This document shows positions 1-54,933 of a DNA stretch of 64,000 nucleotides, in pieces (position 1 is the stretch's first letter; every line of letters begins with the position of its first letter). Origin of the DNA: Nemertoderma westbladi. Its lineage: Eukaryota; Animalia; Xenacoelomorpha. The position numbers were made by a program, and so were the translations under genes. The notes under the pieces were generated by a model. That model worked only from the letters and a program-made list of their open reading frames with translations. It made no database searches and was not told the DNA's origin. The stretch lies in the NCBI GenBank assembly GCA_032718475.1, contig JAUCBJ010008555.1, forward strand, positions 1 through 64,000, in the 5' to 3' direction.

Positions 1-752
1 TCTGCTAAATAACATTGGATTCAATACACACCACATTAATATAAATCGCAATTGTTATGTATAGCCGGTCTCTCTAACCTGTAGTGTTATCAAGAAAATT
101 GGGAATTGGGTGATTTATCCGTATTATCCAAATAGCAATATTTCCATCAACAAATAGGTACAATTAATAACTGACGGTAAAATAACAGTACAAGCAATAT
201 GATTAATGCAAAAGTATCAAGATTAGTTAATGAGTATGATTATCAAGTTAAATTAGTTTGGTAACAGTTTATACTTTCGATAATTCAAGCAGTTTACTAT
301 AGTTCTTACTAAAAGGCCGGTGTTTCTGGCTTAGACAGCAATAACAACAAAGTATCAAGAAAAAACAGTAAGACTGAACACTCTCCTTATGATCGACTAA
401 AAAGCTACACGTCGACAGGAAAAATCGCTCTGATTGGCTCAAGCCAAACAAAGAACCTTGCATCTAATGGCTGTTTCCATGTCAGCAACCAGCTGCTAGA
501 TGTCGTAATATGAATTATCACGGCTAAGCTATGAAAGGTAGTTGGTGCATTACAGGTTTTTTGTCTTACCATGTCCGCCAAAACACGTATATAGCAGAAT
601 TACTTTTATGTCCGTTAAAACACCTGTAAAGGTACCTTGCGGGCGAGGGGAATATATATACAGTTAGAAAACCTTTTTAGAGTATTCCAGCGTCTGGGGG
701 GGAACTGGCCAGCAAAGGCAAACGTATCAGTTATCCCACAAAAGCTTTTACA
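1..752 (-). mobile_element. Partial, diverged LTR of the same Bel/Pao family (5' end at 752; continues past the window start)
   Basis: Reverse complement begins TGTAAAAGCTTTTGTGGGATA like the LTRs at 6127 and 42263. It shares blocks such as CCCCTCGCCCGCAAGGTACC, CCAATCAGAGCGATTTTT and TCTCTCTAACCTGTAGTG. It is not preceded by the internal PPT, so it is a 5' or solo LTR. Confidence 0.85.
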
Positions 753-5330: not shown

Positions 5331-6126
5331 CCCACAAACTAACAAAAAACATAGGATCAGGACATCACGCCCAAAGTACAGTAGTACTCAGTTTGGTTTA
5401 ATTTCATCCAAGATTGACGGACTTATTAGCGTTCAAACATTTCCGACGACGACAACGACAGACGGGTCCACTAATTATTATACGCCTTCGCTAAAGGCTC
5501 ACCTGGACTTACGTGACTAGCCCCTCAGTTAATCGTATGCCAGATATGTAGCCCAGCCCACATTAAAAAACATTAAAAGAAGCACTACTGTATGTAGCCG
5601 ATCAGAAGTTTGTGCTTTTAATTTTAAGGCAGTCGTAAAAATGACTTTTTATGTATGCATTTCTTCAAACTGTGTATCTTGACCCCATTTGTCTCTATAT
5701 TGTGAGATTCCTCTTAGAGCAGCACACATTACAAATAATTTTGCAGTTTAATCATTTTGCCATAACGCACACTAGTCACTGTATGTAGGCTACAGTAAGT
5801 TAGAGGCATGAGTTGTGTACCCATTTACCACGGGTTTCACATCCAAAGCAGTTGTTTCCAGTAACTCGTTTCCCGCGATGAGGAGTACAGTTTCCATACC
5901 AACACAGTAAATTTAACGTACAATAAAGATAGCCGAAACCTATGTTTCTGGTTCATAGATTATATTCTATGATCACTTAAATTGTACATTTAGTATTCAA
6001 TTCAACTTCTGCCGCATGTGAAGAAGGCTAGACCAAACTTTATGCTTTAAATATGAAGCGAGTTTGAAAGATGTCGTTCGCGGCGAATACATACTAAAAT
6101 CGAGTTATATTGGTGTTGTAAGGGTC

Positions 6127-7310
6127 TGTAAAAGCTTTTGCGGATATACTCAGTTCCCCTCGCCCGCAAGGTACCGTTATAGGTGTTTTAACGGACATAA
6201 AAGTCATTCTTCTATATACGTGCTTTGGAGGACATGGTAAGGCAAAAAACCCGCAATGCACCAAATACCCTTGCACAGCTTAGCCTTGATGATTCAGATT
6301 ACGACATCTAACAGCTGGTTGCTGACATGGAAACGGCCATTGGACACATGGTTCTTTGTTTAGCTTAACAGCCAATCAGAGCGATTTTTTCTGTCGATGT
6401 GGAGCTTTTTGGCAGATCATGCTAGGAGTGTTCAGTCTTACTGTTTTTTCTTGATACTGTTGTGTTGTTTCTATCTAGGCCAGGAACACCGGCTCTAGAG
6501 TCAACTCGTTTTCATACTTTAGAAGAAACATTAGTAGGCTTAAGATTATAGAGCGTATAACTGTTATCGGTCCATATCAGTTCAATTCATAACATATCAT
6601 ATCTTAACCTACCGTCTTAATGCTTTTTACTGTTGTCATATTTTGTATCAGTTGGTTGAATATTATTTGGAGAACATTTATAAAGAACCCAAATTTCCCA
6701 ATTTTCTTGATACACTACAGGTTAGAGAGACGGGTTATATATAGCGATTGCGACTTATATTATTGTGGTTTGTAGTGAATTTAATGCTATTTGATAAGCA
6801 CTACATGAGTCAGTTGCTGTTCTCTTTATATATGATAAAATTCATTGACGGTCGGCAAATTAGTGAGCAGTATTGTGTGTTACCGGTAGTGTGCCTGATT
6901 GTGACTGATAACTAAGCATTTCCTAAAGAATGCGCCTCATACGTGAATCATAAGCCTTACCGACTTGCCGTTGTGATTAGTATAAGTCATATCTCTGTTT
7001 ACCTAGATAGAGCGCCACGTCCTAAAGGAACTGTTAATATTTCCCGAAAGTGAATAATATTAGTCAGAAATTATTTATTAACGATCAATCGAATAATACA
7101 GTAAGCTTACACTGCAATAATAATCTAAGCCCTCAGAATCCAGTCTCCCGGGTATATCCAGCGGGTGAATGGACGCGCACTAGGCTGGCTTCTGCTAATG
7201 TTGTGTTTATTGGTATTAAATATTTGTCAACTTCTAAAGTCTATTTATAAACCAAAAGACATATAAATTTTGGCAGGTTAAACTGCTAAAGGTCTTCAAA
7301 AGCGCGTACA
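6127..7310 (+). repeat. 5' LTR of copy 1
   Basis: TGTAAAAGC...GCGCGTACA; only two substitutions seen by eye versus 22490-23673. Confidence 0.97.
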
Positions 7311-7321
7311 ATAACAGTTAT
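7311..7321 (+). promoter_or_regulatory. Non-tRNA primer-binding position ATAACAGTTAT (candidate self-priming PBS)
   Basis: Directly follows the 5' LTR, lacks TGG, is the exact reverse complement of LTR 6557-6567, and is identical in copy 2 (41043-41053, -). Confidence 0.55.
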
Positions 7322-7375
7322 TGACTTTATTGCAGTAAGCAATAAAGTTGAAAGTACCGGTCGACCGGTAAACTT

Positions 7376-7501
7376 GAACCGGTACTTCTGTAGGTCAGTA
7401 GGCCCAACTGCCAGAACCGGTACTGCTGTAGGTCCGTAGGTCCAACTGCCAGAACCGGTACTTCTGTAGGTCTGTAGGCCCAACTGTCCTAACCGGTACT
7501 T
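7376..7501 (+). repeat. ~33-bp tandem repeat in the 5' leader
   Basis: About 4 copies of AACCGGTACTTCTGTAGGTC.GTAGGCCCAACTG; fewer copies in copy 2 (~40920-41010). Confidence 0.75.
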
Positions 7502-7734
7502 CCAGTATAAGTACATTAGTATTATTCGATTTTGATTATTGTATACCGGTAGGTCTTGATATTAAATCGGGGACGCCTGGTTTTTATTGGGATTTTACTT
7601 AGGTCTATTTCTGTCAGTTTTATTTCCTAGTAAGTTAATATTGAGCTGAAGACGTATAAGTCTGCTCAGATTGTTCAGATAACTGTAGGCCGGACTGTTG
7701 TCGGATTGTTGTTGGGTTTGGAGAGATTACGGCG

Positions 7735-8255
7735 TGTGTAGAGTTTGTCCGATAGAGTGCCAGTTAGTAAGTTGGGGCAGCCATAGCTGTAAGGTCAATC
7801 CCCTCTTAAAGAATAAGTCGTACTACCGTGTTAGAACGCATACTAACTAACCATTTTGGAATCTGCACGTACTGTAGTTTATTTAGGCTTGACAGTATTC
7901 TGCCAGCGTTTTGGCCTGTGTTTGTTTGTGTGGTCTGTTCAGGTACCGTAATAGTTATTACTCAGATATTTTGTAGGCTGGATTGTTGTCTAGCTATTAT
8001 TAGGTCTGAAGAGATTGCTGCTTGTGTAGAGTTTGTCTGATAAAGTGCCAGTTAGTAAGTTGGGGCAGCCATAGCTGTAAGGTCAATCCCCTCTTAAAGA
8101 ATAAGTCGTACTACCGTGTTAGAACGCATACTAACTAACCATTTTGGAATCTGCACATACAGTAGTTTATTTAGGCTTGGTGGTAGTCTGCCAGCGTTTG
8201 GTTTGTATTTTGTGTGAGTATTCTGTACGGGTAGCGTAATATTTATTATTCAGAG
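7735..8255 (+). repeat. ~290-bp tandem duplication in the 5' leader
   Basis: GTGTAGAGTTTGTC...GGTCAATCCCCTCTTAAAGAATAAGTCG...GCCAGCGTTT occurs at ~7735 and ~8025; both units are also present in copy 2 (~40200-40690). Confidence 0.85.
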
Positions 8256-9549
8256 TTTATGCGATTATTCGCAACATTTATGTCCCCAAGTTTATTCCTA
8301 CAGTAATTGTGCTTGTTACACATACCGTTATAGTTAAATTAACCCCGGTACTACACGGGCTGCTTGGCGTAGGAAAAGACTGGTGACTTTGTGCTTCGGT
8401 CACTCCAGCAGATGCCGTGGTTCTTTTAACTGTTCAAGTATATTTAACTACTGATTATTTGTTGTACCAGTACTTGTACCTAATTTAGGGTTTAGTGTAC
8501 AGTGCTTTCCGAAAGTAATTAGTGTGTAGGCAGTATATTTGTGTTGTAAAGTGGTTAATAGGCACGTTGGATCTGGTAGTCCGCGGTAATTAACTTCCAG
8601 GTAGGAACACTCCGTGATACATAACGTAGTACCTACAGCGATACGGCTATAGGTCGTCAGGCGGTGGTATTTTCCTATCTGGACAGTGCAATATATTTAC
8701 TACTACTTATTATTTTCAAATACCGTAGTACCCTGTCCGTCGTAATAACCAGAAATCTAACCCTTTGTTAGACTGGTTGGTAGACTTCCTGTAAAATTAC
8801 CCTAAAATTTCGTACGTAATATTTTTGTTGTGTTTAATTAGAGATTTAATCTCACCCGTATCGTAAGTAATTTGTAGTATTAAGTAACTTTAGGTAAATT
8901 AGAATTATCAGTTTTTAGTGTCCAATAAATAGCACTTCACTGAGAGCGCACAGCTTCTGTGTAGTGACTTCCCCCAGAAATAATAACATTTATTTCAAAT
9001 ATTGACAAAACCCATTTTAAACGGGTATATAAATATTATAAATCAACTCAAACGATTTATAAATAGTAGGCCTGCCATACAACAACTAGGTCTCAATATC
9101 AGTTGGACTACTGCTTAAATAACGGTAATAAAGTAAGTTAAAGTAACCAAGTAACCCTAAAATATTCAGAAATTCAATTATTCTAAAATAATTGACATAC
9201 CGGTATTTACCATAGGCTTATTATATTTATTTCTATAAATTTGTGCTGAAATCATACCGGTATTCTGTAATTAATTCTAGTTCAGAATTATACTTATATA
9301 TACTATAAGTGTAAGCTGCATTCCGGTATTCACGATAGGCCTATTATATATTTATATATATTTGTGCTAAAATTATATACCGGTACTCTGTGACAAACCT
9401 AGTTTACAATACTTATATATACTATAAGTGTATACCGGTATTCTAATATACTGCAATAAATTAACGGTACTAGGCCAACGGTCATACTGAATTACTAGAC
9501 TTGCTTTAACTGTAACTATAGCAGTAGGCATTCAACCTTATAGCTAAAC

Positions 9550-12500
9550 ATGTCTGACACCCAGCAAAACCTGTCAGACAGTCTAATCGATACAACCATC
9601 TGTGACACAGATAGGAGTGTGGAGCGATTAAGAAAGGAGTACAGCTCACCTCCTACTGAAAGAAAGGTCATCCCTCCCGTAGTAGTATCAGACCCTAAGC
9701 TAATCCAACACCATAGGTCCATCATCAGCACTCGGGCCCAGGTCAAACGGAACCAGGAAGCAGCTGTCCAACAGCAGCAACATCCTAGTCAAGAAACTTG
9801 TTCCCAGCGATCGGATAGCTCCAGTAGTTCGGATACTGTAGAGCTGACTCCCGAACGCGGATTGCAGATGGCGGCTACAGCCTACTCGGACCCCCTTCTC
9901 ACCCTTCCTGCCGCAGCACTAACTACTATATTGATTGCGGTGGAGGAACATCAAGCCGATTGGGCGAGAAGTAAGAGAGCGACCCAAGATGATTATGCGG
10001 GATACGCCAGAGAAGAATTGGTGTCTATTGTCGAGTCACAATGGAACTTTCCCGGACCCGGACTCCCGTTAGATTTGTCCGAAGCTACTTGGGAAGATAT
10101 ACACAGGATGGGAGTGACTAAAGATACGATGGATCCAGCTGTTTGGAAGAGGTCGGCAGCAGGATATGTGCAGGGATTCTTCGGCTCCTTAGAGCGATTG
10201 GAAGAACAATTGTTTCGACAACCTCAAGGACCTCAAGAGCAGGAAGAGCTGCTTTATCAAGTACGCGAAAGAACCCTACGTATTAGACTAATCCTATCAG
10301 CCTTTGAGGAAACTTCCAAAAGAAGACAGGACACGTCGCTGCAGGTTGCTGTCAAGACTTGGTTCCAGCGGGTAGGTCTCAAAGTGCAAGAAACGGCCCA
10401 GTGGAAATCCCAGCTGGCTGAGAGATCAACCTATGAAGAACCAACCGATGCCACCCTTTCTCAAATGGAAAGCGAAGAAACACCAGCAGAGAAGCCGCCC
10501 TCGAGAGACGCCATAGACATCTATCTGTCAGACTATCAACGCTTCTTGGGTGATGAAGAGTTGAGGAGACGGCTGTCTGGACTTTCCCCTAATAGTGAAG
10601 GAACAAAGCTTGTGTTGGACGCAATCGATGCGGAAATGTTAGCTGCAAACCAAGCTGAATTTGATGAAAAACTCCGCCTCACTAGAGTCCAAGAAGAACA
10701 AGTAAAGAAAAAACAGATAGAGGACCGAAAAGCAGCAGCAGTAACGGCAGCAGAAGCAGAAGCAGCAAAGGCAGCGGCAGAAGCAGAAGCAGCAAAGGTA
10801 GCGGCAGCGGCAGAAGCAGAAGCAGCAAAGGTAGCGTCAGCGGCAGAAGCAGAAGCAGCAAAGGTAGCGGCAGCGGCAGAAGCAGAAGCAGCAAAGGCAG
10901 CGGCAGAAGCAGAAGCAGCGAAGGCAGCGGCAGCAGCAGAAGCAGAAAGAAAGGCAGCGGTGGCAAAAGCAGAACTGAGAGCGTCTGAGGAGACTACCCA
11001 ACTAGAGTTGGAAAATCTGCAAGAGACGCAAGACAACATAAATAAACAGTTAACTGCTAGTCACATGCAGATGATGAGAAGATCTACTCCCAAACGCCAG
11101 GGATATACATCATCGGAGGAAAGCGAAACCACCGATCCTGAAGGCGGAGGAAATAGATCTCGTCTAAGCAGGCGTAGAAAAACATCTTACCGTCACGAAT
11201 TGCCTGATTTGCCCCCAGCTGTTAGAAGACAACTAGCTAGCACAGACTTAAGTAGTATAGAACCTACAGACCAAATTATTAAGGTCAAAAAACTCCCTAC
11301 TATAGTTGATGAGCCTGAAATAATTAGGCCTGTCGTTCCCAAAGTCACTCCTGTGTTAGAGACCCCTGTACTTCCAGAGCTTAACTCTAAATTCCCTTTA
11401 CACAGTACTACACTGCCTGTACCCGGTAGAACAGTCCATGAGAATATCCCTGTCCTGGAAGCTGAGAGAGAAATCAAAGATTTGTCTCCCGTCGTCCCAC
11501 GTCAGCCCGCTACAATGTTGGTGACTCCCGCTTCGGCGGTCGAGTGGGTAGAGGAGGGACGGCGGGGGATGAATCTCCTGCTCGGACAGATGCAGGAGAC
11601 TGTCCACCAACTTAAGGGAACCGTAAGGGAAGGTAGGGCAGATTTGCAAGAAGTGCAGCAAAGTATCGCGCTAGAACGCGACAAATTAGTCAACATACAA
11701 AACGGTATACCAATACCCCCTGTAAAATTGTGTCAACCTGTTAGGTCTGAAGTATTACATGCGCAAGGTGTGGAGCCTACACGCATCTATACTGCTAGTG
11801 AAGTAGAAACTCCTATAGCAAACCCTATTAAGGGTGATTATAGACCTGTTGTTAATGATATTCCCTATAGACCTGATAATGATCCGAGAAATTTATATAC
11901 CGATAATTCGATATTAAATAACACGATGGCCCAAGAAAGCTTTACGCGTCAGATGGCTAGAACAGAAGCCCGCCAAGCGGTCAAAGTGGGAGAGATCGTC
12001 AAATTCAATGGAGATGAGATGAAATGGTTACCTTTCAACGAATATTACAAAGACAGCATACAGAACTCTGTGCTATCTAACGGAGAGAAACTTAGGTTCC
12101 TCATCAAGTGCTTGGAAGGACCTCCCAAGTTAATGGCGTTAAAGTTTATTGGACATCCAGAAGGATTAAGACAAGTTTGGGATACATTAAACATCAGGTA
12201 TGGTAACAAGGATAACATAGCTAAGTATTTGTATGCAAAATTAGTAGCCCCCCGAAACTTCCTTAGTAGCGGTATTATAGAGTTTTCCGATGAGATTCAG
12301 GAGATCTGTAGACAATTGGACTGGTTAGGTAAGTCTCATGAATATCAGAGTTCCATGGTTATTGGAGCAGTAGTCTCTACTTTACCAAAGGGTGGAGTAT
12401 GTACGCGTTGGGACAAGAAAGTGTTGTACATGAATGAACAACAACGACGAAGCCCTACCATGGCTGATCTCATGTCCTTCTTAGATGGTGAGGTAAAACT

Positions 12501-13287
12501 ACAACTCATCAAGCAGTCCAGAGAGAAAACATCGGAAAATAAGGTAAGTGAGAAACCCGCTTCTAGGAGAAGAGTAACACCGGTGTGTTACACTGACGAC
12601 GGCGAAAGCCAAGCTTCTCAAGAAGAGGACAGCGGGAAAGACACTGAGAGATCTTACTACGTTGATAAAACCTCAAAAGACGTAAGTAAATACAAGGCTC
12701 GAAACAACGATAGGAGAGAACAGGTTGCCAAGACCCCTCCTCAGTCTCCTAACAGAATGCACCGAAGAAAGCCCGAAGAAAGAACGAGAGTGCATCAAGT
12801 TACCCAAGGTAAAGTGAGTAACATAAAACCTAACTGTGCACTGTGCGACGGGACCCACCGTTTGAGTGCGTGTGCTGAATTTCTAAAGAAATCCCTTGTA
12901 GACAGACGTGCAGTCGTGTGGGATAAGCGGTTATGCTATAATTGCCTCAGACCAGGACACCAACGGCGAACCTGTTACTCCGACATAAAGTGTGCAAAGT
13001 GTGGCGCGAAACATCACATCTTGTTACACAGTGAGTTCGAACGAGACAAACAGAGTCAGGTAAGTGAGCCCGAACTACATGTCCAATTCAGTGATGTAAA
13101 TGACACTGATCAGGAGTCTGAGATGGAAGGATTCTATACTGACGAATTCTCCGACGCCAACGAATCCTGTTACCTAATCAATACCGCGGTGTATCGAGCA
13201 CTTACTTATGAAAAGGACCCGAAAATGAGTTCCCCCCAACTACCTTTGACAGACAACCATCTTGGAAAGCTCCAACTTCCAATGTAG
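9550..13287 (+). CDS. gag: Bel/Pao Gag (N-terminal part of an ancestral single polyprotein)
   Basis: DUF1759-like KFNGDEMKWLPF; triple knuckle CALCDGTHRLSAC / CYNCLRPGHQRRTC / CAKCGAKHHILLH typical of Bel/Pao; AEAEAAK helical repeat. A 1-nt frameshift near 13217 separates it from the protease, whereas copy 2 reads through. Confidence 0.93.
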   Translation: MSDTQQNLSDSLIDTTICDTDRSVERLRKEYSSPPTERKVIPPVVVSDPKLIQHHRSIISTRAQVKRNQEAAVQQQQHPSQETCSQRSDSSSSSDTVELTPERGLQMAATAYSDPLLTLPAAALTTILIAVEEHQADWARSKRATQDDYAGYAREELVSIVESQWNFPGPGLPLDLSEATWEDIHRMGVTKDTMDPAVWKRSAAGYVQGFFGSLERLEEQLFRQPQGPQEQEELLYQVRERTLRIRLILSAFEETSKRRQDTSLQVAVKTWFQRVGLKVQETAQWKSQLAERSTYEEPTDATLSQMESEETPAEKPPSRDAIDIYLSDYQRFLGDEELRRRLSGLSPNSEGTKLVLDAIDAEMLAANQAEFDEKLRLTRVQEEQVKKKQIEDRKAAAVTAAEAEAAKAAAEAEAAKVAAAAEAEAAKVASAAEAEAAKVAAAAEAEAAKAAAEAEAAKAAAAAEAERKAAVAKAELRASEETTQLELENLQETQDNINKQLTASHMQMMRRSTPKRQGYTSSEESETTDPEGGGNRSRLSRRRKTSYRHELPDLPPAVRRQLASTDLSSIEPTDQIIKVKKLPTIVDEPEIIRPVVPKVTPVLETPVLPELNSKFPLHSTTLPVPGRTVHENIPVLEAEREIKDLSPVVPRQPATMLVTPASAVEWVEEGRRGMNLLLGQMQETVHQLKGTVREGRADLQEVQQSIALERDKLVNIQNGIPIPPVKLCQPVRSEVLHAQGVEPTRIYTASEVETPIANPIKGDYRPVVNDIPYRPDNDPRNLYTDNSILNNTMAQESFTRQMARTEARQAVKVGEIVKFNGDEMKWLPFNEYYKDSIQNSVLSNGEKLRFLIKCLEGPPKLMALKFIGHPEGLRQVWDTLNIRYGNKDNIAKYLYAKLVAPRNFLSSGIIEFSDEIQEICRQLDWLGKSHEYQSSMVIGAVVSTLPKGGVCTRWDKKVLYMNEQQRRSPTMADLMSFLDGEVKLQLIKQSREKTSENKVSEKPASRRRVTPVCYTDDGESQASQEEDSGKDTERSYYVDKTSKDVSKYKARNNDRREQVAKTPPQSPNRMHRRKPEERTRVHQVTQGKVSNIKPNCALCDGTHRLSACAEFLKKSLVDRRAVVWDKRLCYNCLRPGHQRRTCYSDIKCAKCGAKHHILLHSEFERDKQSQVSEPELHVQFSDVNDTDQESEMEGFYTDEFSDANESCYLINTAVYRALTYEKDPKMSSPQLPLTDNHLGKLQLPM

Positions 13288-13307
13288 GAATCAGAGAATT
13301 TCCTGTA

Positions 13308-15812
13308 GTGCAGGTAAGAGTTCACGGTCCTAACAACAGTTACATAGTGAACGCCCTCCTTGACTCCGGCAGCACAGGAACATTCATCGATCAAGAACTA
13401 GCCGAAGATATCTTTGCTGGACAACCCAAATTCCGGACTAAATTGAATATGTCAGGAATTATGCAGGTTTGGAAATCTACCCTAACGGCAGATTACTATG
13501 TAGGTGTGTTGTCCACCCCCCAGGATAAGTTAGGAGCACAAGGTATAAGGTCGGTAAAAATGGTGGCTATAAAGAACTTCGCTACTACTCAAGCAGACCT
13601 TTATAATTGGGACGAGGATGAAAGCATCCAACATCTTAAGATACCTCGATTCCAGACAGATTATCCTGGAGTGCAAATACTCATCGGCCAAAACGCGCAT
13701 GAGGCGCTCGAGACATTGGAGAAACGGCCTGCTCAACCGCATCCACTGCAAACCTATGCGGTAAGAACTAGAGTAGGTTGGTACTTTACTGGCCCTTCCC
13801 GCAGGACTCTCGAAGAAAGAATGCCACAAGAACGAATATACCATGTAAACGATTGGGAAGTGGAGAGCAGTGAGGTGGACGAACTAACTGAGGAAACACC
13901 ATACTCCTCAGATAATGACGACATCTACCAACTCTTCGATGAAGAGAATACAATCGACCTACTTACAGAAAACAAAACTTGGAAAAATCAGGTGAACCTA
14001 TGTCAACGGATTCGCCCATCGGAACCCATCGCTTACAATGACGAACTAAACGATGAGATAGAGCGCTACAACGCTAGAACTCGGGACGAACTAGCCGTAC
14101 GATTCTTTACTCAAGAACTGGTAGAGCCCAATTCATATGATAAGGCCCTATCGATAGAAGAAGAAAGAGCCAAGCAAATCCAGGAAACAACTACACGTTT
14201 TTTAAAGGACCAAGGTAGATATGAAATCGGCCTACCATTTCGAAAACGAGAACCTAGATTTATAAATAACAGACCCTTGGCAGAGAAAAGAATCGCTCAA
14301 TTACATCGACGCCTTACGGCTAATGCTTCAGCTAAAGAAATGTACCAAACTCAGCTGAAGAAATTTATAACAAAGGGATACGCGGAGCGAGTACCGGAAG
14401 GAACACCAGTGACTGAGAGAACGTATTACTTAACACATCATTACGTTCCCAAACCCGGTAAACCCCACGAAGTACGAGTCGTATTCGATGGCTCCGCCCT
14501 ATATATGGGCCAATCCCTCAATTCCGAGTTGTTACCAGGACCCAACTTACTCCAATCTTTGTTGGGAATACTTTTAAGATTAAGACAATATTCCATCGCG
14601 TTCGCCTCCGATATAGAAGGAATGTTCTTACAAGTCAAGGCGCTGGATAGAGATAGAGACAGCCTGAGATTTCTATGGTGGCCTGAAGGAGACCTCAATC
14701 AGAAACCGGTAGAGTACTGGATGACCATCCAGGCTTTTGGAATCATATCAAGCCCTTCCAACGCCTGCTCCGTGGTGCAAACCACTGCGAATGACAACCG
14801 AGACTCCTTCTCAAAAGAGGTGATAGACAACATCAAGCGGAATATATACATGGACGACAATTTAAGGTCCCTTCCATCAGTAGAAGAAGCCATAGATGTC
14901 GCGAAAGGAACGGTAGAGTGTTTGAAAAGAGGTGGATTTCGACTGACGAAATTCACCAGCAACTCCCGTGAGTTTCTGGAAGCGATACCGGTAGAAGACC
15001 GAGGAACGAAAGACCTAGACTTAATAAAAGACGATCTTCCTGAAACCAAGACGCTTGGCTTGAAGTGGGACACTGAAAGAGACATCCTGTTTTTTCAGTT
15101 AAAACAGCGAGATAATCCAGTTCGGACCAAACGGATTTGTTTAAGTATCCTGAGCACTTATTTCGACCCATTGGGATTTATTAGCCCAGTTATATTGATT
15201 GCTCGGAGTTTAGTACAACAAATGTGGCTTGAAAACCACTCATGGGACGATCCGCTTAAGGGAGAACTGTTAAAGAAATGGATGAAATGGGAAGATTCTC
15301 TACCTGCCATCGAGAACTTTATAATTTCCCGTGCATATTTTGGCCATGTTCTTCCTACGTATTCCTATCAACTCCATGTGTTTGGAGACGCCAGCGACAT
15401 GGGAATAGGTATAGTAGCATATCTGGGAGTCGAAACTCTGGATGGAATCAAAGTCGCCTTGGTTACCTCTAAGGCATTGATTAACAACAAGTTAAAGGTT
15501 CCTCGAGCGGAGTTAAAGGCGGCTTTATACGCTACAGCCATCGGCCGGAACGTAACGGAACAAATTGACTATCCACTGGAGAAAACGGTTTATTGGACCG
15601 ACGCTTTACTCGTGTTGGAGTATCTAACCAATGAAGTCTGTCAGTTCAGCGTTTTTGTTACTAACAGAGTAGCTATTATTCTTAGTCGCACAAAGATAGA
15701 TCAATGGAGACATTGCCCTGGTACGATTAATCCAGTCGATATCGCCTCCCGGGGAGCAACTCCACAGGAACTGATAGATACTCCAGACTGGTTGGCTTCC
15801 CCGACTTCCTGA
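13308..15812 (+). CDS. pol: Pol: aspartic protease, reverse transcriptase, RNase H (Pao/A17 region)
   Basis: ALLDSGS protease; RVVFDGS, SDIEGMFLQV and IYMDDNL RT motifs; LHVFGDASD, VPRAEL and YWTDA RNase H motifs; frameshift near 15800. Confidence 0.95.
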   Translation: MQVRVHGPNNSYIVNALLDSGSTGTFIDQELAEDIFAGQPKFRTKLNMSGIMQVWKSTLTADYYVGVLSTPQDKLGAQGIRSVKMVAIKNFATTQADLYNWDEDESIQHLKIPRFQTDYPGVQILIGQNAHEALETLEKRPAQPHPLQTYAVRTRVGWYFTGPSRRTLEERMPQERIYHVNDWEVESSEVDELTEETPYSSDNDDIYQLFDEENTIDLLTENKTWKNQVNLCQRIRPSEPIAYNDELNDEIERYNARTRDELAVRFFTQELVEPNSYDKALSIEEERAKQIQETTTRFLKDQGRYEIGLPFRKREPRFINNRPLAEKRIAQLHRRLTANASAKEMYQTQLKKFITKGYAERVPEGTPVTERTYYLTHHYVPKPGKPHEVRVVFDGSALYMGQSLNSELLPGPNLLQSLLGILLRLRQYSIAFASDIEGMFLQVKALDRDRDSLRFLWWPEGDLNQKPVEYWMTIQAFGIISSPSNACSVVQTTANDNRDSFSKEVIDNIKRNIYMDDNLRSLPSVEEAIDVAKGTVECLKRGGFRLTKFTSNSREFLEAIPVEDRGTKDLDLIKDDLPETKTLGLKWDTERDILFFQLKQRDNPVRTKRICLSILSTYFDPLGFISPVILIARSLVQQMWLENHSWDDPLKGELLKKWMKWEDSLPAIENFIISRAYFGHVLPTYSYQLHVFGDASDMGIGIVAYLGVETLDGIKVALVTSKALINNKLKVPRAELKAALYATAIGRNVTEQIDYPLEKTVYWTDALLVLEYLTNEVCQFSVFVTNRVAIILSRTKIDQWRHCPGTINPVDIASRGATPQELIDTPDWLASPTS

Positions 15813-17731
15813 GCAAGGAAGAGGATGAATGGCCTCCTCACCTTACTACGGCGGAGATTAGACAAGCCAAGGGAGCGGAGACAGTCAAACCTAAAACCCG
15901 GGCGAGTAAATCGAAGTTATTTAAACCGACTATCGATCTATCTGTATTACATACTTCCGGGAATGATGCTTCGGATCCACAATCCCTCAACACAAATAAG
16001 GCTGTTGTGGAAATTAGAGATAGAGACTGGATATCTGGAATACCAGACATCTCGCAAGGAATCTCACCCCTGCTGCAGAGAGCAATGCATCACTACAGTT
16101 CCTGGAATCGGCTCTGTAAAGCCGTCACGTATTTAAGGAGATGTTTTCATCATCACTACTCCAGGACGAAGACCATTAGTGATACCGCTCCATTGACATC
16201 TGCGCAAGTTCATGTAATTAAAAATTTACCCAAATATAAAACATCCGACCGGTTTCTAAAGGAGAAAATTAGTTACCAGGAGCATGAAGAAACCAATAAG
16301 CAGATACTGAGACTCCTGCAATGCTATGAGGATTCCGATAAGTATTTCCTGTTGTTGAGAAATCCGCAGATGCGCTTAAGGGATCGATTCTCTAGCACAA
16401 TGATAGATGGGTTAATACGTGTTGGAGGAAGGCTCACCAATGCGCCATTATCCTTTGACACTAAATTCCCCATACTCATTAGAAATCTTGAAGTACAAAT
16501 CAAGATGATTGTAGATGTTCACAGTAAACTTTATCATGCTGGTAGAGAACGAGTTCTTAGCGAAATTCGAACACGCTATTATTTTGATAAACCCCGTAGA
16601 GCTCTGAACCAAGTTCTTAGGAACTGCATACCCTGTAGGAAAGCATTCAGTAGGCCTTTAACACAGCGAGAGGCAGAATTACCTAGGGAACGAGTAAGCT
16701 TCTATGAACCACCTTTTACTAATACTGGTGTAGATTTATTTGGCCCTATTGAAGTATATCGTGCTAGGACTATAGTCAAGAGATGGTGTGTCATCTTCGT
16801 GTGCATGACTTGTAGAGCCATCCATCTCGATATGGTGAACGATCTATCTACCAACAGCTTTGTCTTAAGTCTACGACGACAGATCGCTCGCTTCGGGACG
16901 AGTAATACCATGAGATCGGATAAGGGAACGAACTTCATTGGTGCCAACAACGAAATACAGGCTTACGTGAAGGACTGGAACCAAAGACAGGTGGACGACC
17001 AGCTAAGGATAACAGCGTCTAGCTGGACCTTCAACGCCGCCGACGCCCCTTGGTGGGGAGGAAGTTGGGAGAGATTAATTCGAAGTGTCAAAACCGCATT
17101 TCACTTTATAGTGCCATGCCGCGCGTATCTCACCGACGAACTTTTGCGGACGTTAATGGAGGAAATAGCTGCCTATCTCAACGAAAGACCGCTTATGCCA
17201 GTCTCATCGAGTCCCGATTCCCTGGAAGCGCTAACACCTGCACACTTCCTACTGAAGAAACCTGTAGCCATGCTCCCACGATCGGAGATTGCCGACGGAG
17301 ACGAATACTGCCGTCGAACTTGGCAACTTATGCAGTTGCTATCCCGTTGTTTCGCTGACCATTTCGAGAAACATTATCTGCCCACGCTACAACTTCGAAC
17401 TAAGTGGTTTGCGCAGCAAGAAAACGTCAGCGCCGGAGATATGGTGCTTATTGTAGATCCAGACCTCCCACGTAAACGGTGGCAGACAGGTCGTATCATC
17501 GAGACCCACATCTCGGATGATGGTATAGTACGCTCAGTAGAACTCATTGTCATGCGGCGTAACTTCAAGAAGCCAGGCATAATCTTTGAGACGCAACAAC
17601 TCAATCGCCCAGTTGGTCGTTTATGTTTACTGGAAAGAGACAGAGAACTCTCTGGAAACTATGGAAGGCAAGACACTCTTCCCACGACCACCTCCCTAAT
17701 TCCTCAAACATCTAGGGACTCCCCAACATGA
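15803..17731 (+). CDS. pol: Pol C-terminus: integrase (frame open from ~15803; ORF-track start 16007)
   Basis: HHCC motif (HSKLYH...CIPC), GVDLFGP, SDKGTNF, WGGSWERLI, LTPAHFL, and a C-terminal GDMVLI...W.TGRI...DGIVR motif. Confidence 0.95.
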   Translation, partial: DFLSKEEDEWPPHLTTAEIRQAKGAETVKPKTRASKSKLFKPTIDLSVLHTSGNDASDPQSLNTNKAVVEIRDRDWISGIPDISQGISPLLQRAMHHYSSWNRLCKAVTYLRRCFHHHYSRTKTISDTAPLTSAQVHVIKNLPKYKTSDRFLKEKISYQEHEETNKQILRLLQCYEDSDKYFLLLRNPQMRLRDRFSSTMIDGLIRVGGRLTNAPLSFDTKFPILIRNLEVQIKMIVDVHSKLYHAGRERVLSEIRTRYYFDKPRRALNQVLRNCIPCRKAFSRPLTQREAELPRERVSFYEPPFTNTGVDLFGPIEVYRARTIVKRWCVIFVCMTCRAIHLDMVNDLSTNSFVLSLRRQIARFGTSNTMRSDKGTNFIGANNEIQAYVKDWNQRQVDDQLRITASSWTFNAADAPWWGGSWERLIRSVKTAFHFIVPCRAYLTDELLRTLMEEIAAYLNERPLMPVSSSPDSLEALTPAHFLLKKPVAMLPRSEIADGDEYCRRTWQLMQLLSRCFADHFEKHYLPTLQLRTKWFAQQENVSAGDMVLIVDPDLPRKRWQTGRIIETHISDDGIVRSVELIVMRRNFKKPGIIFETQQLNRPVGRLCLLERDRELSGNYGRQDTLPTTTSLIPQTSRDSPT

Positions 17732-18280
17732 TACGTCTGGAGTGGGTGTATGACTATATTATTTTATCTATTTTATTATATTTTTATATGCGAACTTTAT
17801 TATGTACTTTATTATAATCGTTTTTATTCAATTTTATTTAGTAGAATGTTATTTTAGTGATTATTTAGTAGATTAGTGCAATATATTAGTATTTATTACG
17901 TACGTAATTACTTATAATATATATTTAGTGCGACGGCGAGAAAATAATTATTTTTCTCTTTCCTTACTGTCCGTATCATATTATAAATACGTGACTACAG
18001 TAAGATGAAATGTCCGTACTTCTTAAAGTACAATAAAGCCACTACTATATTCAAGTATTATTGGTAGGCAGAGTATTAGGAATGCAAAATTCAGATCCTC
18101 GTGTCTCGGCTAAACCAAGCTCTGGGTGGACCTTGGAAACGACTTGCCTCTTCACACTGACATTGCTTCGTGCGATATTGCTCTTCTACCTTATATTAAA
18201 TAATACATATAGTAGCGTGATGTCCCTCTAACAGTAGCGTAAAACACAAATCAATCTGTTAAACCTTTTGACCATCTGTA

Positions 18281-18560
18281 ATTCTAGTCGATTAAGATAT
18301 CGCGGCACCCACCGATATACTTGAAAGACAAATTCTAGAATCAGTGGTTAACGTCCCCAGACAAGTTCTGGAATAAATCGGTGCCCATCTTAAATATTAA
18401 TTTAATATTTAGTAAAATCTGTAAAATTCAGATCCTTTAAATTCTAGTCGATTAAGATATCGTAGCACTTACCGATACTCTTAAAAGACAAATTTCATAG
18501 AATTAAGGATCCTATGTCCCCAGACATGCTCTGGAATAAAAATTGTGTCAATTTTAACAT
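18281..18560 (+). repeat. Diverged 160-bp-period direct repeat in the post-pol region
   Basis: ATTCTAGTCGATTAAGATATCG at 18281 and 18441, each followed by GTCCCCAGACA...CTGGAATAAA; retained in copy 2. Confidence 0.75.
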
Positions 18561-19165
18561 CAAATAATAAAATTCATGGGAATAAATTTAAATTCATATT
18601 TAAATGAATTTCATAAATTGTCGTTTTGTGCAATTTATAACATTCCCAAAAATTCCATTAATTAATAGATCATGGGAGCGGAGATTCATCCTATTGAGTG
18701 TATTAGAGTGCGAGAATCTCCAACATATAGTCAATAGCCGATAAAATTAATAAAATCATGCATAAAGAGGATATTGACAATTAAAGAATTATTATTAAAT
18801 AGCATCCCAGATCTGTATGCATGAGAATTACCCTAATTCTACCGCTAGCATTCCATAATGTCACCATAGCAACACCCACGCTAGAATTAGAAGCAAGTTA
18901 AGAGAACAATAGAAAGCTTGTCCTATTACATAGCATAGAGAATACATAGCACACTGTTAGTATCCAAGGATACACAGTAATAACGTGACATTCTGGAAGG
19001 CACTGACTAACGGACAAATGGCCTGTATGTGTACAATTGGTGACAGTTGTGTGGAATTTGTGCGTTTATAGGTGAATGTTACTGCTAAAGTATGTTTACA
19101 GTAGCTAGTCGCAATTGTAAAAGTAGCCCAACTCTCCTATAGAAAGAACCTAAGTGGATCCAAGC

Positions 19166-19287
19166 CTTTGGGACGGACAGTGGAGTGACTTGTGCCGGTT
19201 ATCGTTGTCGTGCTGTTGCTACATGTTGGCGTAAACACCGCGACGACGGTACATCGGCGCTGAGAATCCCACTGTCCGGGGGCAAAG
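19166..19287 (+). ncRNA. Predicted ~120-nt rod-like cis RNA structure
   Basis: Nested helices CTTTG/CAAAG, CGGACAGTGG/CCACTGTCCG, GTGCCGGT/ATCGGCGC, TATCGTTGTCGTG/CGCGACGACGGTA. The two differences seen in copy 2 (~33411-33532) both preserve pairing. Confidence 0.6.
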
Positions 19288-19359
19288 AGAAGTAGGCAGC
19301 GACGCCCGCTCGCCTATAATATAAACTTATTTTGATATTAATAAACTCAGATAGCAGAT

Positions 19360-19814
19360 ATGACGGAGTTGATAAAGATGATCTTGGTATTAGGGAGCGA
19401 TATACTCTACCTTTACAAGCATTTGTGGATAGCTTAATACGCGGTGAAGCCGATCCAACCATTATGGAGGACGATGGTCGTTATATCGAACCGCCGATGT
19501 CCCAAGAGCAACTTGCGCGTGAATTGGACTATCGAAAATTCACCACTCGCTATACGAATCGTAATGGTACGTATATGGACTTCCTAAATACCGGCCATCC
19601 TATCGATTTACATGACACGGACGATGTAGATATAGAGAGGGAAATGGTTCTATTTAAATATCATACCCAGCGGAGTCGTAATGATAAACCGAGAATGGAA
19701 CACGAGAATTCTATTTGAAAACAACTCGAAAGATAGAACGTGGAAGAAAGCTTGAAAAGACAAATAGAAGAGAACACTGAAGAAGAGACATGGGTTAATG
19801 TCCAGGGTCCATGA
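19360..19814 (+). pseudogene. Accessory ORF2 of the retrotransposon, unknown function, disrupted in this copy
   Basis: Copy 2 has an intact start (MTELIEDDLGIRERY..., 33339). Copy 1 has a 1-nt deletion at ~19375 and stops at ~19716 and ~19734. The proteins are highly similar between copies. Confidence 0.6.
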
Positions 19815-20872
19815 TGTGAATAGTTTTTCCCCGGGGCACGGGTGCTCGCGGGCGGTCTCCTTCGGGAGGCTGTAATTTCTCTTCCTTCATCGTTTTCCTG
19901 TAATTATTGTGATCAGTGTCACAATTAAAGAGCAAGAATGAATGATGATGTGACGGAAACATGTCCATTGTGGTATCTTATGGGTACTACCATATATCCT
20001 CCCTCCTCTTTACTCCCTTTATCCCTCTATACATCGCTATTGAAAATACAACATACTTCGTCCCACCTTCTCTTCCCAATGTGCTCGGAGCTTTGGGAGA
20101 CGATCGACCAATCATTGCCGTATCGTGGTATGGATCATACCGCCTCCTAATAAATCCCCCCACCCCTTACTGTTTATTTGTATGCTCATATTGGTGTCCG
20201 CACCTCTTGTCCATGTCACATTCCACATTCTGTTGATATTTATGATATCAACTTCCACCCTCTCGTTGTTGATTAGAAAGTCAACCACCAATAATTTCCT
20301 TAAGTCCGCAACCGTGATACAAACAAGGACTGAAAGGACACGAGGATAGTTTGTGAACAACTGGTACCATTATGTGTCATAAATCTGGTTGTTCACCTCC
20401 CTCAATGATTGGAGATATAAATCTTATGTAGAACAACTGAGACAAACATATCCTTGAACTGGTGTTTATCTCCTCGCACTAAGGATAAATTCATTTGGAG
20501 ATAGTCTTCGAACGATTGAATCCTCCAACTGAGAACTGAGATCGTATTTCTGAATATTTCTGAATACGACATAGGTCTTCCCCTGCTCTCTACCACTACC
20601 ATCAATGGAAGACATATTAGGCATACAACGGGAATATGGAGAACATTCCATACCCTTTCGTTGATACTCAGCTGATTGCTCCCTGGGCAGAAGGTTGAGG
20701 TTTCTTCCGCACCATGTATGCTAATACGTCTAGCAACATTACAAAGGTGCAATGAACTTCCATCGGACATCTTGCCTTTCAGGAATACGGATGGAATTTC
20801 AAAGTCGGAAATCCCATTAACTATCAACAAGTATACGGAGACCATTATTCTCGATTATACTTTGATGGACCA

Positions 20873-22411
20873 TTGACCGCACCTGGCGCCGTGTATAGCT
20901 TCATGAGTGTTCCACTCCGTCCCTACTTAGCTATATACACGATCTTTGAAAACACCGCACTTGCCGGTTGGCTAGCCGATGTGTGCAGTCGTACTATACG
21001 CGCCCATCCATTAATACTTGGGACCAAACTCGCTAAGCTAGATGAACATAATAAATTCATCCGTTTCAAATGTTTCCGGCGATTTTTAACCCCATTCCGC
21101 AACGTGGATAGCCAATTTAAAGACCGCGCTTTGACCAAGCTCAGCCTAAGAAACTCAGCTGCAGAGAAGTTGGATAGCGCTGGATTCGCCATTTTCCAAG
21201 AGATTTGTATATCGAACTTGCACTCCTCTGTTATACAAAGACATCGAATCCCCACAGGTTATTCTGTCGTGGAAATTCAGACAATAGGTCCACCTGAAGA
21301 GACAGACACGCCCACCTCAGCTATGCACTTGGAAGACGAACCAATATGTCTAGAATCTGAGGAGATTCAGCCTATCGCGCCCCGGAACAGCGACAACGAT
21401 TACATCATAGAATGGTATCAAGGTCCACAGTGTCTCACTGCGTACGATTATCGACATGCCAACTATGTTTCTAGGCCACGTTGTCGGTTATGTGCATCGA
21501 GAGACCATGATACGCCCATGGACACCAACGTCCGCTGTTCCTATTTCCAAGAACAACCGACTATGGAAATTTATTGCGCATATTGCAGACTCAATAACTT
21601 GCATATTTTTGCGGTTTGCCCTCAATTTATGACTCAATGTCACCATTGTCAACTAAAGGGACACGCCAGTTTCGATTGCCCTTTTAATCGCGATTTGGAA
21701 AGCGTAGATGAAATGATCACACTACGTTACATCAGAGCTTGGGAAGCGAACGCTGATTTACATTGTGATTCGCGCCATCGCTATTATCCTGGACGCGCTT
21801 ACGAAGGAGTTTATGCGTTCCATCCTTATCTATTCGCTTCGGTCGAACAGAAATCACGCATATCGAGTTACGAGCTACTGAAGCGCGTCGGAGAATGTAT
21901 TTCAACCAAATTCGTACGCAAATTTCTCAGGAGTGTTAATCCTAGCGACCTTCATTCCTATAACTTAATCAATTATATCCGTCAGGATCCGGACTATGGA
22001 GACTTGTTTGTTAACTCACACCCCGAGTTACAGGAAGTATATCGACGGCCTTACGAATACCAAGCCCGCGAACGCGAGTTGGAAAGAACCATTAAACCCC
22101 GGAGGTTTCTAACTGCCTATGGTCCACCCACGGCCCTCGTTCAGACCACTCGTAAAGGACCCGTAAGAGCGGCTGTCTTAAAACGAGCTCTCAAAGCCGT
22201 TAGACCCCTCTCCCCCGACGTTGATGTCAATCAACCCGGTACTTCGACTGGCGGATACACCGACCATAATCCTACACCCTCTGATGCAATAATATTGCAC
22301 CCTTCACCCAGGAGTTATAGCCCTCCTTGTAAAGTGGCTCGCCCCAAAGAGAAAAAGACTCTGGCTAGCTTTAAAAAACTGCGTAAACGCCGTCCGCGCA
22401 AGAAAGACTAA
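20873..22411 (+). CDS. Accessory ORF3: triple CCHC zinc-knuckle protein with a basic NLS-like tail (frame open from 20756; start uncertain)
   Basis: CRLC-x4-H-x9-C, CAYC-x5-H-x4-C and CHHC-x4-H-x4-C; C-terminal KKLRKRRPRKKD; homolog in copy 2 with several synonymous changes. Confidence 0.8.
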   Translation: MTAPGAVYSFMSVPLRPYLAIYTIFENTALAGWLADVCSRTIRAHPLILGTKLAKLDEHNKFIRFKCFRRFLTPFRNVDSQFKDRALTKLSLRNSAAEKLDSAGFAIFQEICISNLHSSVIQRHRIPTGYSVVEIQTIGPPEETDTPTSAMHLEDEPICLESEEIQPIAPRNSDNDYIIEWYQGPQCLTAYDYRHANYVSRPRCRLCASRDHDTPMDTNVRCSYFQEQPTMEIYCAYCRLNNLHIFAVCPQFMTQCHHCQLKGHASFDCPFNRDLESVDEMITLRYIRAWEANADLHCDSRHRYYPGRAYEGVYAFHPYLFASVEQKSRISSYELLKRVGECISTKFVRKFLRSVNPSDLHSYNLINYIRQDPDYGDLFVNSHPELQEVYRRPYEYQARERELERTIKPRRFLTAYGPPTALVQTTRKGPVRAAVLKRALKAVRPLSPDVDVNQPGTSTGGYTDHNPTPSDAIILHPSPRSYSPPCKVARPKEKKTLASFKKLRKRRPRKKD

Positions 22412-22481
22412 CTGTTTAGAGTATTTACATATATTAGAAACTGTGATTTTTGTATATTTATAAACTTGAATCCCATTTTCT

Positions 22482-22489
22482 GGGAGCGG
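22482..22489 (+). promoter_or_regulatory. Short PPT-like tract
   Basis: GGGAGCGG immediately before the 3' LTR; same in copy 2 (31814-31821, -). Confidence 0.5.
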
Positions 22490-23673
22490 TGTAAAAGCTT
22501 TTGCGGATATACTCAGTTCCCCTCGCCCGCAAGGTACCGTTATAGGTGTTTTAACGGACATAAAAGTCATTCTTCTATATACGTGCTTTGGAGGACATGG
22601 TAAGGCAAAAAACCCGCAATGCACCAAATACCCTTGCACAGCTTAGCCTTGATGATTCAGATTACGACATCTAACAGCTGGTTGCTGACATGGAAATGGC
22701 CATTGGACACATGGTTCTTTGTTTAGCTTAACAGCCAATCAGAGCGATTTTTTCTGTCGATGTGGAGCTTTTTGGCAGATCATGCTAGGAGTGTTCAGTC
22801 TTACTGTTTTTTCTTGATACTGTTGTGTTGTTTCTATCTAGGCCAGGAACACCGGCTCTAGAGTCAACTCGTTTTCATACTTTAGAAGAAACATTAGTAG
22901 GCTTAAGATTATAGAGCGTATAACTGTTATCGGTCCATATCAGTTCAATTCATAACATATCATATCTTAACCTACCGTCTTAATGCTTTTTACTGTTGTC
23001 ATATTTTGTATCAGTTGGTTGAATATTATTTGGAGAACATTTATAAAGAACCCAAATTTCCCAATTTTCTTGATACACTACAGGTTAGAGAGACGGGTTA
23101 TATATAGCGATTGCGACTTATATTATTGTGGTTTGTAGTGAATTTAATGCTATTTGATAAGCACTACATGAGTCAGTTGCTGTTCTCTTTATATATGATA
23201 AAATTCATTGACGGTCGGCAAATTAGTGAGCAGTATTGTGTGTTACCGGTAGTGTGCCTGATTGTGACTGATAACTAAGCATTTCCTAAAGAATGCGCCT
23301 CATACGTGAATCATAAGCCTTACCGACTTGCCGTTGTGATTAGTATAAGTCATATCTCTGTTTACCTAGATAGAGCGCCACGTCCTAAAGGAACTGTTAA
23401 TATTTCCCGAAAGTGAATAATATTAGTCAGAAATTATTTATTAACGATCAATCGAATAATACAGTAAGCTTACACTGCAATAATAATCTAAGCCCTCAGA
23501 ATCCAGTCTCCCGGGTATATCCAGCGGGTGAATGGACGCGCACTAGGTTGGCTTCTGCTAATGTTGTGTTTATTGGTATTAAATATTTGTCAACTTCTAA
23601 AGTCTATTTATAAACCAAAAGACATATAAATTTTGGCAGGTTAAACTGCTAAAGGTCTTCAAAAGCGCGTACA
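22490..23673 (+). repeat. 3' LTR of copy 1
   Basis: 1184-bp direct repeat of 6127-7310. Confidence 0.97.
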
Positions 23674-24181
23674 GGGTCTAAGCCACGATTCTAAGTAAAA
23701 CACATTCCTTTTTATCATATGGCCATTTCGTCTATTAACACACGTCTTCAGTGATATAAATATATATTAAAAATTGTGTTAATACACGAACTGGCCATAT
23801 GATAAAAAGGAATGTGTTTTACTTAGACCCTTACAACACCAATATAACTCGATTTTAAACTTTCTGCTGTTATATTTCACTTTGCAGTTAACCCCCTAAT
23901 TGTTTTTATGAACCATATGTTGTCACTAAAAACATGAAGGGCTGAATCTAACCAAAACAATAAACGAATTAGTATCTGTACAAGTTAGGCCTATAATAAA
24001 AGATATAAATATGCGCTATATTCTTCATAGGTCCTACCTACTGTATCAAATTTAAATAAAAATTTGACCGAAAAGTGAAAACCTGGTATTATTCTTCACA
24101 TTTGGCGTGAATAATTATTTATTGCTAATAATAAATTCAAAGGAACCTTACAAATACGTAATCTTCGTATGTGCTAGGCCT

Positions 24182-25583: not shown

Positions 25584-26585
<1,002 letters not shown>

Positions 26586-43895: not shown

Positions 43896-44054
43896 GATAT
43901 GAGGGAGACGGTGTTAACTGTGACAACATCAACGAATGCGACGTGCCATCTCTGAATAACTGCCATGAGTTTGCGGATTGTATCGACGATGAACCGGGTT
44001 ACCACTGCGTCTGCCAAGACGGATACACCGGGGATGGAGTCCATAACTGTGAAG
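43896..44054 (+). CDS. cbEGF/ShKT gene exon B
   Basis: TTTAG|...|GTTAGT, 159 nt, phase 1-1; GYEGDGVNCDNINECDVPSLNNCHEFADCIDDEPGYHCVCQDGYTGDGVHNCE completes the EGF begun in exon A. Confidence 0.92.
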
Positions 44055-46305: not shown

Positions 46306-46376
46306 TATTAACTTATTTCCCAGATTGACAGAACAATTCGTATGATAATAATTTCGTCGGCATTGATATTTTTCAG

Positions 46377-49313: not shown

Positions 49314-49439
49314 ACGACGATGAATGCAGTGACGGCTCCCACAACTGCGACGCCGACCACGCCGATTGTATCAACACCCCCGGGGGATACGATTGCGAAT
49401 GCCACGACGGGTATAGTGGGGACGGAACCCACTGCGATG
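49314..49439 (+). CDS. cbEGF/ShKT gene exon E
   Basis: TTCTAG|...|GTTAGT, 126 nt; DDDECSDGSHNCDADHADCINTPGGYDCECHDGYSGDGTHCD. Confidence 0.92.
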
Positions 49440-51238: not shown

Positions 51239-51304
51239 AAAACAATTCGTATTGCAGTTATAGTGTAGTAGATTGAGTTCGTGTAAACAATATCATTCAT
51301 TGTA

Positions 51305-54300: not shown

Positions 54301-54511
54301 GTATTTTACACTCCATTCCGGATTCACAAAATATATGAATCCGCGTTTTACACTGCAATACGGATTGCGTATTTCAGAATCCGCATATTACACTCAGTTA
54401 CGGATTGTATGTAAATCCGGATCCGCCTTTTACACTCGCAAATCCGGGTCCTGATCCGTATCCGGATCCTGAATCCGGATCCGGATCCGGATCCGCGTTT
54501 TACACCTACCC
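51305..54511. mobile_element. Foldback (MULE-like) element with ~1.2-kb inverted arms built from 53-bp tandem repeats
   Basis: GGGT..AGTAAAACGCGGATCCGGATC / GATCCGGATCCGCGTTTTACACCTACCC termini; 9-bp TSD TTCATTGTA (51296-51304, 54512-54520); unit GGATCCGGAATGGAGTGTAAAACACGGATTTACGTTAATTACCAAGTTTTATT, inverted in the right arm. Confidence 0.92.
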
Positions 54512-54810: not shown

Positions 54811-54933
54811 ACGATGATGAATGCAGTTTGGGCACAGATGATTGCGATGATAACGCCAATTGCATCAACACAGATGGAGGATATGATTGTATATGTAGAA
54901 CGGGTTACTCTGGGAACGGAAGACAATGTGACC
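54811..54933 (+). CDS. cbEGF/ShKT gene exon F
   Basis: TTCTAG|...|GTAAGT, 123 nt; DDDECSLGTDDCDDNANCINTDGGYDCICRTGYSGNGRQCD. Confidence 0.92.

Follow-up and report, generated by a model that had tools for sequence, protein, structure and literature searches.

Candidate Tf1-like self-priming in a Bel/Pao retrotransposon of Nemertoderma westbladi and a predicted intron within the primer of most of its relatives

Introduction

What primes reverse transcription in a Bel/Pao retrotransposon whose 5' LTR is not followed by the TGG of a tRNA-type primer-binding site (PBS)? The question arises from an element in a 64,000-nt stretch of DNA from Nemertoderma westbladi (contig JAUCBJ010008555.1), referred to here as the window. 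The original prediction, made from the letters of the window alone, was that the PBS of this element is complementary to 11 nt within its own LTR and that the lineage self-primes in the manner of Tf1. In Tf1, the RNA's initial 11 bases anneal to the PBS, and the RNase H cut falls between bases 11 and 12 (PMC7175516). Published accounts of self-priming cover Tf1/sushi, Tcn1 and, among copia elements, the TAR lineage (PMC6317226, PMC7175516, PMC6934838, PMC5443660, PMC3601003). The Belpaoviridae are characterised in the ICTV profile by an 18-nt PBS that pairs with the 3' end of tRNA-Arg or tRNA-Gly and by genomes of 4.2-10 kb, and their replication is described there as poorly understood (PMC8742986).

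Results

When the window was compared with itself, one LTR element appeared twice in inverted orientation, as copy 1 (6127-23673, +) and copy 2 (42263-30604, -); their features are collected in Table 1. Copy 1 has a total length of 17.5 kb, two differences between its LTRs and a 5-bp target site duplication (TSD), GGGTC, at 6122-6126 and 23674-23678; copy 2 has six LTR differences, the TSD GAATA and an internal deletion. The Pfam domains of copy 1 lie in three frames in the order PR-RT-RH-IN (DUF1759, Peptidase_A17, Integrase_H2C2, DUF5641). Bel/Pao proteins share about 40% identity with its RT region, those that carry names belonging to corals, echinoderms, bivalves, crustaceans and fish, and PF05380 was present in all homologues among the matches listed (at least 120). 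We assign the element to Bel/Pao via protein ancestry alone; its PBS and size depart from the ICTV profile. In common with the Belpaoviridae are the DUF1759 Gag, the Pao peptidase/RT/RNase H, the DUF5641 integrase and the domain order, as well as TG...CA LTRs of 1.2 kb, a polypurine tract (PPT) and a 5-bp TSD, whereas the 11-nt self-matching PBS, the length and the extra frame set it apart, and the 18-nt tRNA-Arg/tRNA-Gly PBS of the profile is absent (PMC8742986). No chromodomain was matched by Pfam in the element's proteins.

Table 1. Features of the element, its second copy and the second-subfamily LTR in the window
Feature	Position	Strand	Description
Copy 1 5' LTR	6127-7310	+	1184 bp, TGT...TACA
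Predicted self-primer	6557-6567	+	ATAACTGTTAT, exact reverse complement of PBS
PBS, non-tRNA type	7311-7321	+	ATAACAGTTAT, flush with 5' LTR end, no TGG
Hairpin 3' of PBS	7324-7348 (arms 7324-7333/7339-7348)	+	10-13 bp
Gag-like frame	9544-13287	+	DUF1759, zinc knuckle
Protease-RT-RNase H frame	13212-15812	+	Pfam Peptidase_A17
Integrase frame	15731-17731	+	Integrase_H2C2, DUF5641; frame shifted relative to RT frame
Extra sense frame, 551 aa	20756-22411	+	Several Cys/His clusters, 5' of 3' LTR
PPT, purine-rich	22482-22489	+	Immediately 5' of 3' LTR
Copy 1 3' LTR	22490-23673	+	Second occurrence of 11-mer at 22920-22930
Copy 2 5' LTR	42263-41054	-	1210 bp, U3 unlike copy 1; primer site 41784-41774; PBS 41053-41043
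Copy 2 3' LTR	31813-30604	-	11-mer at 31334-31324
Second-subfamily LTR	752-1	-	About 76% identical, continues past window edge
Variant 13-nt primer site, second subfamily	261-273 (+ strand) in LTR 752-1	-	Exact complement is the PBS variant in public contigs

Several further features of the locus were recorded. The region 17731-20756 and the 551-aa frame bring copy 1 to a length well beyond the ICTV range; that frame gave no Pfam match over the cutoff, only a weak zinc-knuckle match (E 0.046). The U3 regions are mosaic (6127-6440, 42263-41903, 752-360), with the U3 of copy 1 common to the diverged LTR and not to copy 2, while 6441-6568 and the greater part of R/U5 occur in both copies. The motif TTTTCTTGATAC, a possible promoter element, is repeated at ~6444 and 6701 and kept in all three LTR types, and a CAG/GTTAGA site at ~6718 is conserved. 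A ~290-nt tandem duplication lies in the 5' untranslated region at 7675-8254, also in copy 2, and short repeats lie at 7356-7500. Between the inverted copies there is a DIMT1-like rRNA adenine dimethylase ORF in a single frame at 25584-26585 (+) (Pfam RrnaAD). Satellite arrays occupy 44023-46313, 49408-51248, 51600-57600 and 59569-64000, with units of ~84, 51, 53, 49 and 45 nt.

Both the lack of TGG after the 5' LTR and the 11-nt complement within the LTR were confirmed, and both motifs are unchanged in copy 2. The primer:PBS duplex is exactly 11 bp, mismatched on both flanks, and no base separates it from the LTR end. Its polarity is the one that priming requires, the LTR segment pairing through its 3' end with the first post-LTR base; a T lies 5' of the segment and a C 3' of it, an arrangement shared with most relatives. 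The LTRs had been said to diverge about one base 3' of the 11-mer, and two LTR types do share 6441-6568 and split from the second base 3' of it. Since two more variants among the contigs also depart from the reference after 6568, conservation stops one base 3' of the primer in several subfamilies. When the LTR was subjected to 5000 dinucleotide shuffles, an exact 11-mer at offset 0 turned up 12 times (p=0.003 if offsets of 0-5 are allowed), and two of 200 internal control windows reached 11. When G-U pairs were permitted, the score of the window element was marginal (p=0.045 against shuffles, 0.059 against internal windows), and p<0.05 was obtained in 4 of 17 relatives. As the single match is marginal under the permissive score, the weight of the argument rests on covariation.

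A first form of covariation was found within the species. The second-subfamily LTR carries a variant of the 11-mer, with one substitution at the primer 3' end and one inserted base, and the original prediction was that a PBS altered to match should exist. Public contigs from four runs (at most three samples) were aligned to 7270-7345, across which only two substitutions were listed, at 7307 and 7311. A7311G was present in 31, 25, 12 and 1 contigs of runs X1, X2, X3 and X5, and accounted for 44%, 42% and 53% of summed depth in X1-X3, where depth is not copy number. Eleven X1 contigs and one X5 contig part from the reference beyond 7319, and the letters that follow there extend the match. A7311G combined with these letters gives the same 13 letters as the + strand of the window at 261-273; in X5, both features apparently lie on one 66-nt contig, as judged from equal depth and lengths. 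The expected PBS thus exists as an exact 13-nt complement with two compensatory changes and is abundant, on contigs too short to tie a PBS to an LTR type. This variant loses the long palindrome described below, and its loose ends retain the hairpin stem, with the arms on separate contigs.

An RT-region alignment with 50 homologues retrieved 80 metagenome loci and 23 loci from MAG contaminants; two scans of viral contigs gave no relatives. The contaminant loci (L081-L103) are animal Bel/Pao contigs within 'bacterial' GTDB MAGs and represent host contamination. Some flanking direct repeat was present at 48 of the 103 loci, and 20 families had a definable LTR end; statistics were calculated on 19, L085 being excluded as close kin of L083. 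The longest perfect own-LTR complements of the post-LTR bases summed to 149, compared with 111±5 in 100000 permutations (p<1e-5). Nine of the 19 relatives reached p<0.05 against shuffles, and a same-strand control was not significant (Fisher p=0.10).

Many of these matches start just 3' of a pyrimidine-rich AG. An initiator element was considered as the meaning of this AG and was replaced by a splice-acceptor reading once GT donors were found upstream, the exon ends of which make the match complete. With predicted splicing allowed, 15 of the 19 relatives had a complement of 10-15 nt to their own PBS, versus 4 of 342 cross-pairs; in 11 of the 15 the match exists only across a predicted GT-AG intron, and in four (L039, L065, L067, L086) it is contiguous. 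The split rule (a GTA or GTG donor, a pyrimidine-rich YAG acceptor and at least 40 nt) was derived from the same LTRs that it scores; decoy junctions, which were fewer in number, gave at most 7 nt. Within the close pair L083 and L085, three exon-1 bases differ and the opposite PBS bases differ too. Four of the 19 fell below the 10-nt rule: L068, L087, L090 and L054, the last with a TGG-type PBS that also occurs in L078. Two of these were scored as misses with partial matches, L068 having 12 contiguous nt only with its LTR end shifted by hand and L087 having 10 of 11.

A blind set consisted of 14 loci with unknown LTR ends, three circular contigs without a PPT candidate being left out. The scan required strong donors and ACA ends, and its donor list was set after a first look at the blind set. 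A split 11-mer was found in nine of the 14 loci versus 1 of 182 cross-pairs, L096 among the nine being distrusted for its undefined LTR end, and a contiguous 11-mer in 4 of 14 versus 10 of 182. A summary set was then selected for matches of at least 10 nt and comprised 29 elements, the window element included; 21 are split and eight contiguous, and the match is exactly 11 nt (the mode) in 19 of the 29. Donors are near-consensus, with GTAAGT in 11 of the 21 split elements. A pyrimidine-purine step at the match start, noted post hoc, occurs in 26 of 29, and C lies directly 3' of the primer in 18 of 29 and in all three window LTR types. For the window LTR, the spliced form yields only 8 nt versus 11 contiguous.

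The covariation between PBS and LTR 11-mer anticipated by the original prediction holds in the second subfamily and in about 28 related families, each PBS fitting its own LTR, and the self-priming proposed for the lineage gains support from both. A point that the first reading had missed is that in most relatives the primer is predicted to be split by an LTR intron. Separately, L016 (56-75, with the 3' LTR of L059) has a PBS that starts with TGG and yet matches its own spliced LTR junction over 14 nt; it is possibly an intermediate between the tRNA-type and self-primed states. A further group (L017, L050, L053, L055, L077) has in common an extra long region outside gag-pol, and the two scored members, L050 and L053, have contiguous primers.

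The history of the intron was examined in RT/RNase H trees of the loci without named references, one of 99 sequences (five short loci dropped) and one of 36 sequences with the TGG-type pair as its root. The contiguous forms were spread among the split forms: split L025 is the closest branch to L039, both lying within split L030 (UFBoot 100), and split L046/L083/L085 form the sister group of L086 (UFBoot 100). Because contiguous forms scatter in this way, the trees fit repeated intron loss. The window RT forms a long branch that is sister to the main group (UFBoot 94), with split L016 outside (69), values below firm support. Contiguous relatives likely arose by loss of the intron via a reverse-transcribed spliced 3' LTR, and the window element may have done so too or may never have had an intron.

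The structures proposed around the PBS were also assessed. The predicted 10-bp hairpin and its pairing-compatible U-G change (A-to-G) in copy 2 are both present, with predicted pair probabilities of 0.98-0.99; such a hairpin is no general trait of the relatives (mean z -0.04 over 29 elements). The palindrome at the PBS was likewise found, at 7309-7323, and its predicted self-duplex (-12.0 kcal/mol) is stronger than that of primer:PBS (-10.1 kcal/mol). In the second subfamily the palindrome is lost and the LTR match retained, which weakens the case for the palindrome as a dimer site. In unconstrained folding, the primer:PBS helix was predicted for RNA starts at 6555-6558 (0.59-0.76) and was at 0.00 for starts at 6535 or upstream. 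For copy 2 the helix prediction is fragile, its value of 0.90 dropping to 0.00 when the 3' end is placed further out. Taken as a whole, the 804-nt fold is not stabler than shuffles (z -0.89). Run X4, possibly RNA, has no coverage of 6511-6584, which weighs neither way.

Discussion

Taken together, the covariation makes self-priming of some form very probable, and for the window element we consider it fairly likely that minus-strand DNA is primed, as in Tf1, with the 5' end of the element's own RNA. Transcription would start at ~6555-6558, to which the predicted helix and the post hoc pyrimidine-purine step point indirectly, and 6557-6567 would fold onto 7311-7321 over a ~740-nt loop. By analogy with Tf1, the element's RNase H would cut the RNA after 6567, before C6568, and the primer 3' end would be extended into U5. 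Plus-strand synthesis would then copy the primer, keeping PBS and primer matched.

In the split forms, host splicing would assemble the primer from LTR exons; because only spliced RNA matches, the spliced RNA must be the pairing form in these relatives. The intron could persist since the sequence 5' of the cut would come from the RNA's 3' LTR, which must remain unspliced, and occasional splicing of the 3' LTR would yield the contiguous forms. A possible benefit of the split form is that the 3' repeat would be unable to pair with the PBS and be cut. If the start coincides with the match start, a first exon of 3-9 nt is implied, which would be unusual.

The alternative that best survives is self-priming from an RNA that starts upstream of 6555-6558, since only a 3' end at 6567 is needed; we regard it as unlikely. 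Such an RNA would require no 3-9-nt first exon in the split forms, and it would accommodate a donor-like site at 6237 in copy 1 (score 7.8, in the range of the relatives' donors), an acceptor-like site (9.3) in copy 2 at the position matching 6478, and poly(A)-like signals shortly 3' of the primer in many relatives. The predicted helix, however, is lost with an upstream start, and against it also stand the sharp end of the match at 11 nt in 19 of 29 elements and the pyrimidine-purine step with which the match opens in 26 of the 29. Moreover, copy 2 has no strong donor 5' of its acceptor-like site, and the copy 1 acceptor lies outside its top five.

Considerably less probable is a helix that is selected for a structural role (packaging, dimerisation or translation control), or a repeated palindromic protein-binding site, with another primer in use. 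Each motif is nearly palindromic, the predicted self-duplex of the PBS palindrome is stronger than primer:PBS, and AACNGTT is frequent in the window. Against a structural role, the match is always 0-5 nt from the LTR end and has priming polarity, with no other PBS visible. The centre base suits an inverted and not a direct reading, the same-strand control is not significant, and the second subfamily has lost the palindrome and kept the match.

Slightly less credible still is a host RNA primer, such as a half tRNA or other fragment. Judged by eye, 6538-6567 looks like the 5' half of a tRNA-Asn, with its D-arm and GUU anticodon loop, and in one family of relatives (L054/L078) the PBS is of the TGG type and has no self-match. 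Half-tRNA priming is known in Ty1/copia lineages (in the accessible part of PMC6317226), and tRNA priming is given for the family by ICTV (PMC8742986). A fixed RNA, however, would be unable to track a PBS that changes with the LTR across subfamilies and about 28 families. The tRNA-Asn-half look-alike was itself rejected, as Rfam gave no match for 6490-6568 with E values allowed up to 10 and ARAGORN gave no gene; spliced-leader priming was rejected too, since no PBS extension common to relatives was found. A chance match in AT-rich sequence, which the marginal permissive score of the single case and the contiguous 11-13-nt matches in 10 of 182 blind cross-pairs might suggest, is scarcely tenable given that the predicted variant was found and the permutation p was <1e-5, and it is largely refuted by covariation.

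Self-priming from the LTR also has to be placed among other unconventional primers. In C. elegans, the Bel/Pao element Cer7 has a self-encoded tRNA-like primer as an internal copy, and the Oikopleura Tor elements have a PBS matching host spliced leader RNA. These too are animal LTR elements with primers that are not host tRNA 3' ends, but in neither is the primer known to be the 5' end of the element's own LTR.

The closest likeness is to Tf1/Tf2 of Schizosaccharomyces pombe, Tf1/sushi and the Tcn1 chromoviruses (Ty3/gypsy), which likewise have no tRNA PBS and an 11-nt LTR complement of an LTR-adjacent PBS (PMC7175516, PMC6317226). The window element differs from this group in its Bel/Pao, not Ty3/gypsy, proteins and its ~740-nt primer-PBS loop, and most of its relatives differ in the predicted spliceosomal intron in the primer, a feature not found described for Tf1/sushi or Tcn1. 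By its sequence, then, the element resembles Tf1 in its predicted mechanism and is no member of the Tf1/sushi group. For the plant Ty1/copia TAR lineage (Houba, Osr-1), the accessible part of PMC6317226 predicts self-priming from an LTR complement of at least 10 nt starting 0-5 nt after the LTR, and the same rule was applied here. TAR belongs to another superfamily and kingdom, and no intron-split primer is reported for it in that part (PMC6317226).

The consulted portions of four Bel/Pao papers (PMC554778, PMC3118150, PMC2774666, PMC6238403) contain no mention of PBS or priming. A literature search, subscription journals, Repbase reports and supplements aside, gave no report of Bel/Pao self-priming or of a splice-built primer. 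The picture is of Bel/Pao elements that would prime as Tf1 does, most of the relatives probably with an added splicing step.

Our best reading of these sequences is that a large Bel/Pao radiation self-primes, mostly via a splice-built primer, and that the window element is an intron-less form. More tentatively, we lean towards a fuller account, in which a Bel/Pao radiation of aquatic animals dropped the tRNA for an 11-nt self-primer made by splicing a cap-proximal micro-exon of 3-9 nt to the following LTR exon. Such a radiation would depend on the host spliceosome for reverse transcription, carry an inert 3' LTR copy and have lost its intron repeatedly, in the window element among others. Self-priming would then have emerged independently in a third superfamily of LTR elements.

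The window contributes an intron-less member with a within-species compensatory change. Priming independent of tRNA is indicated across many Bel/Pao families, as opposed to the tRNA-primed profile, and annotation tools that locate a PBS by its tRNA match would miss or misplace such elements. The same 11-nt length as in Tf1 suggests a constraint set by RT/RNase H. If the intron-split primer is true, host splicing would license reverse transcription.
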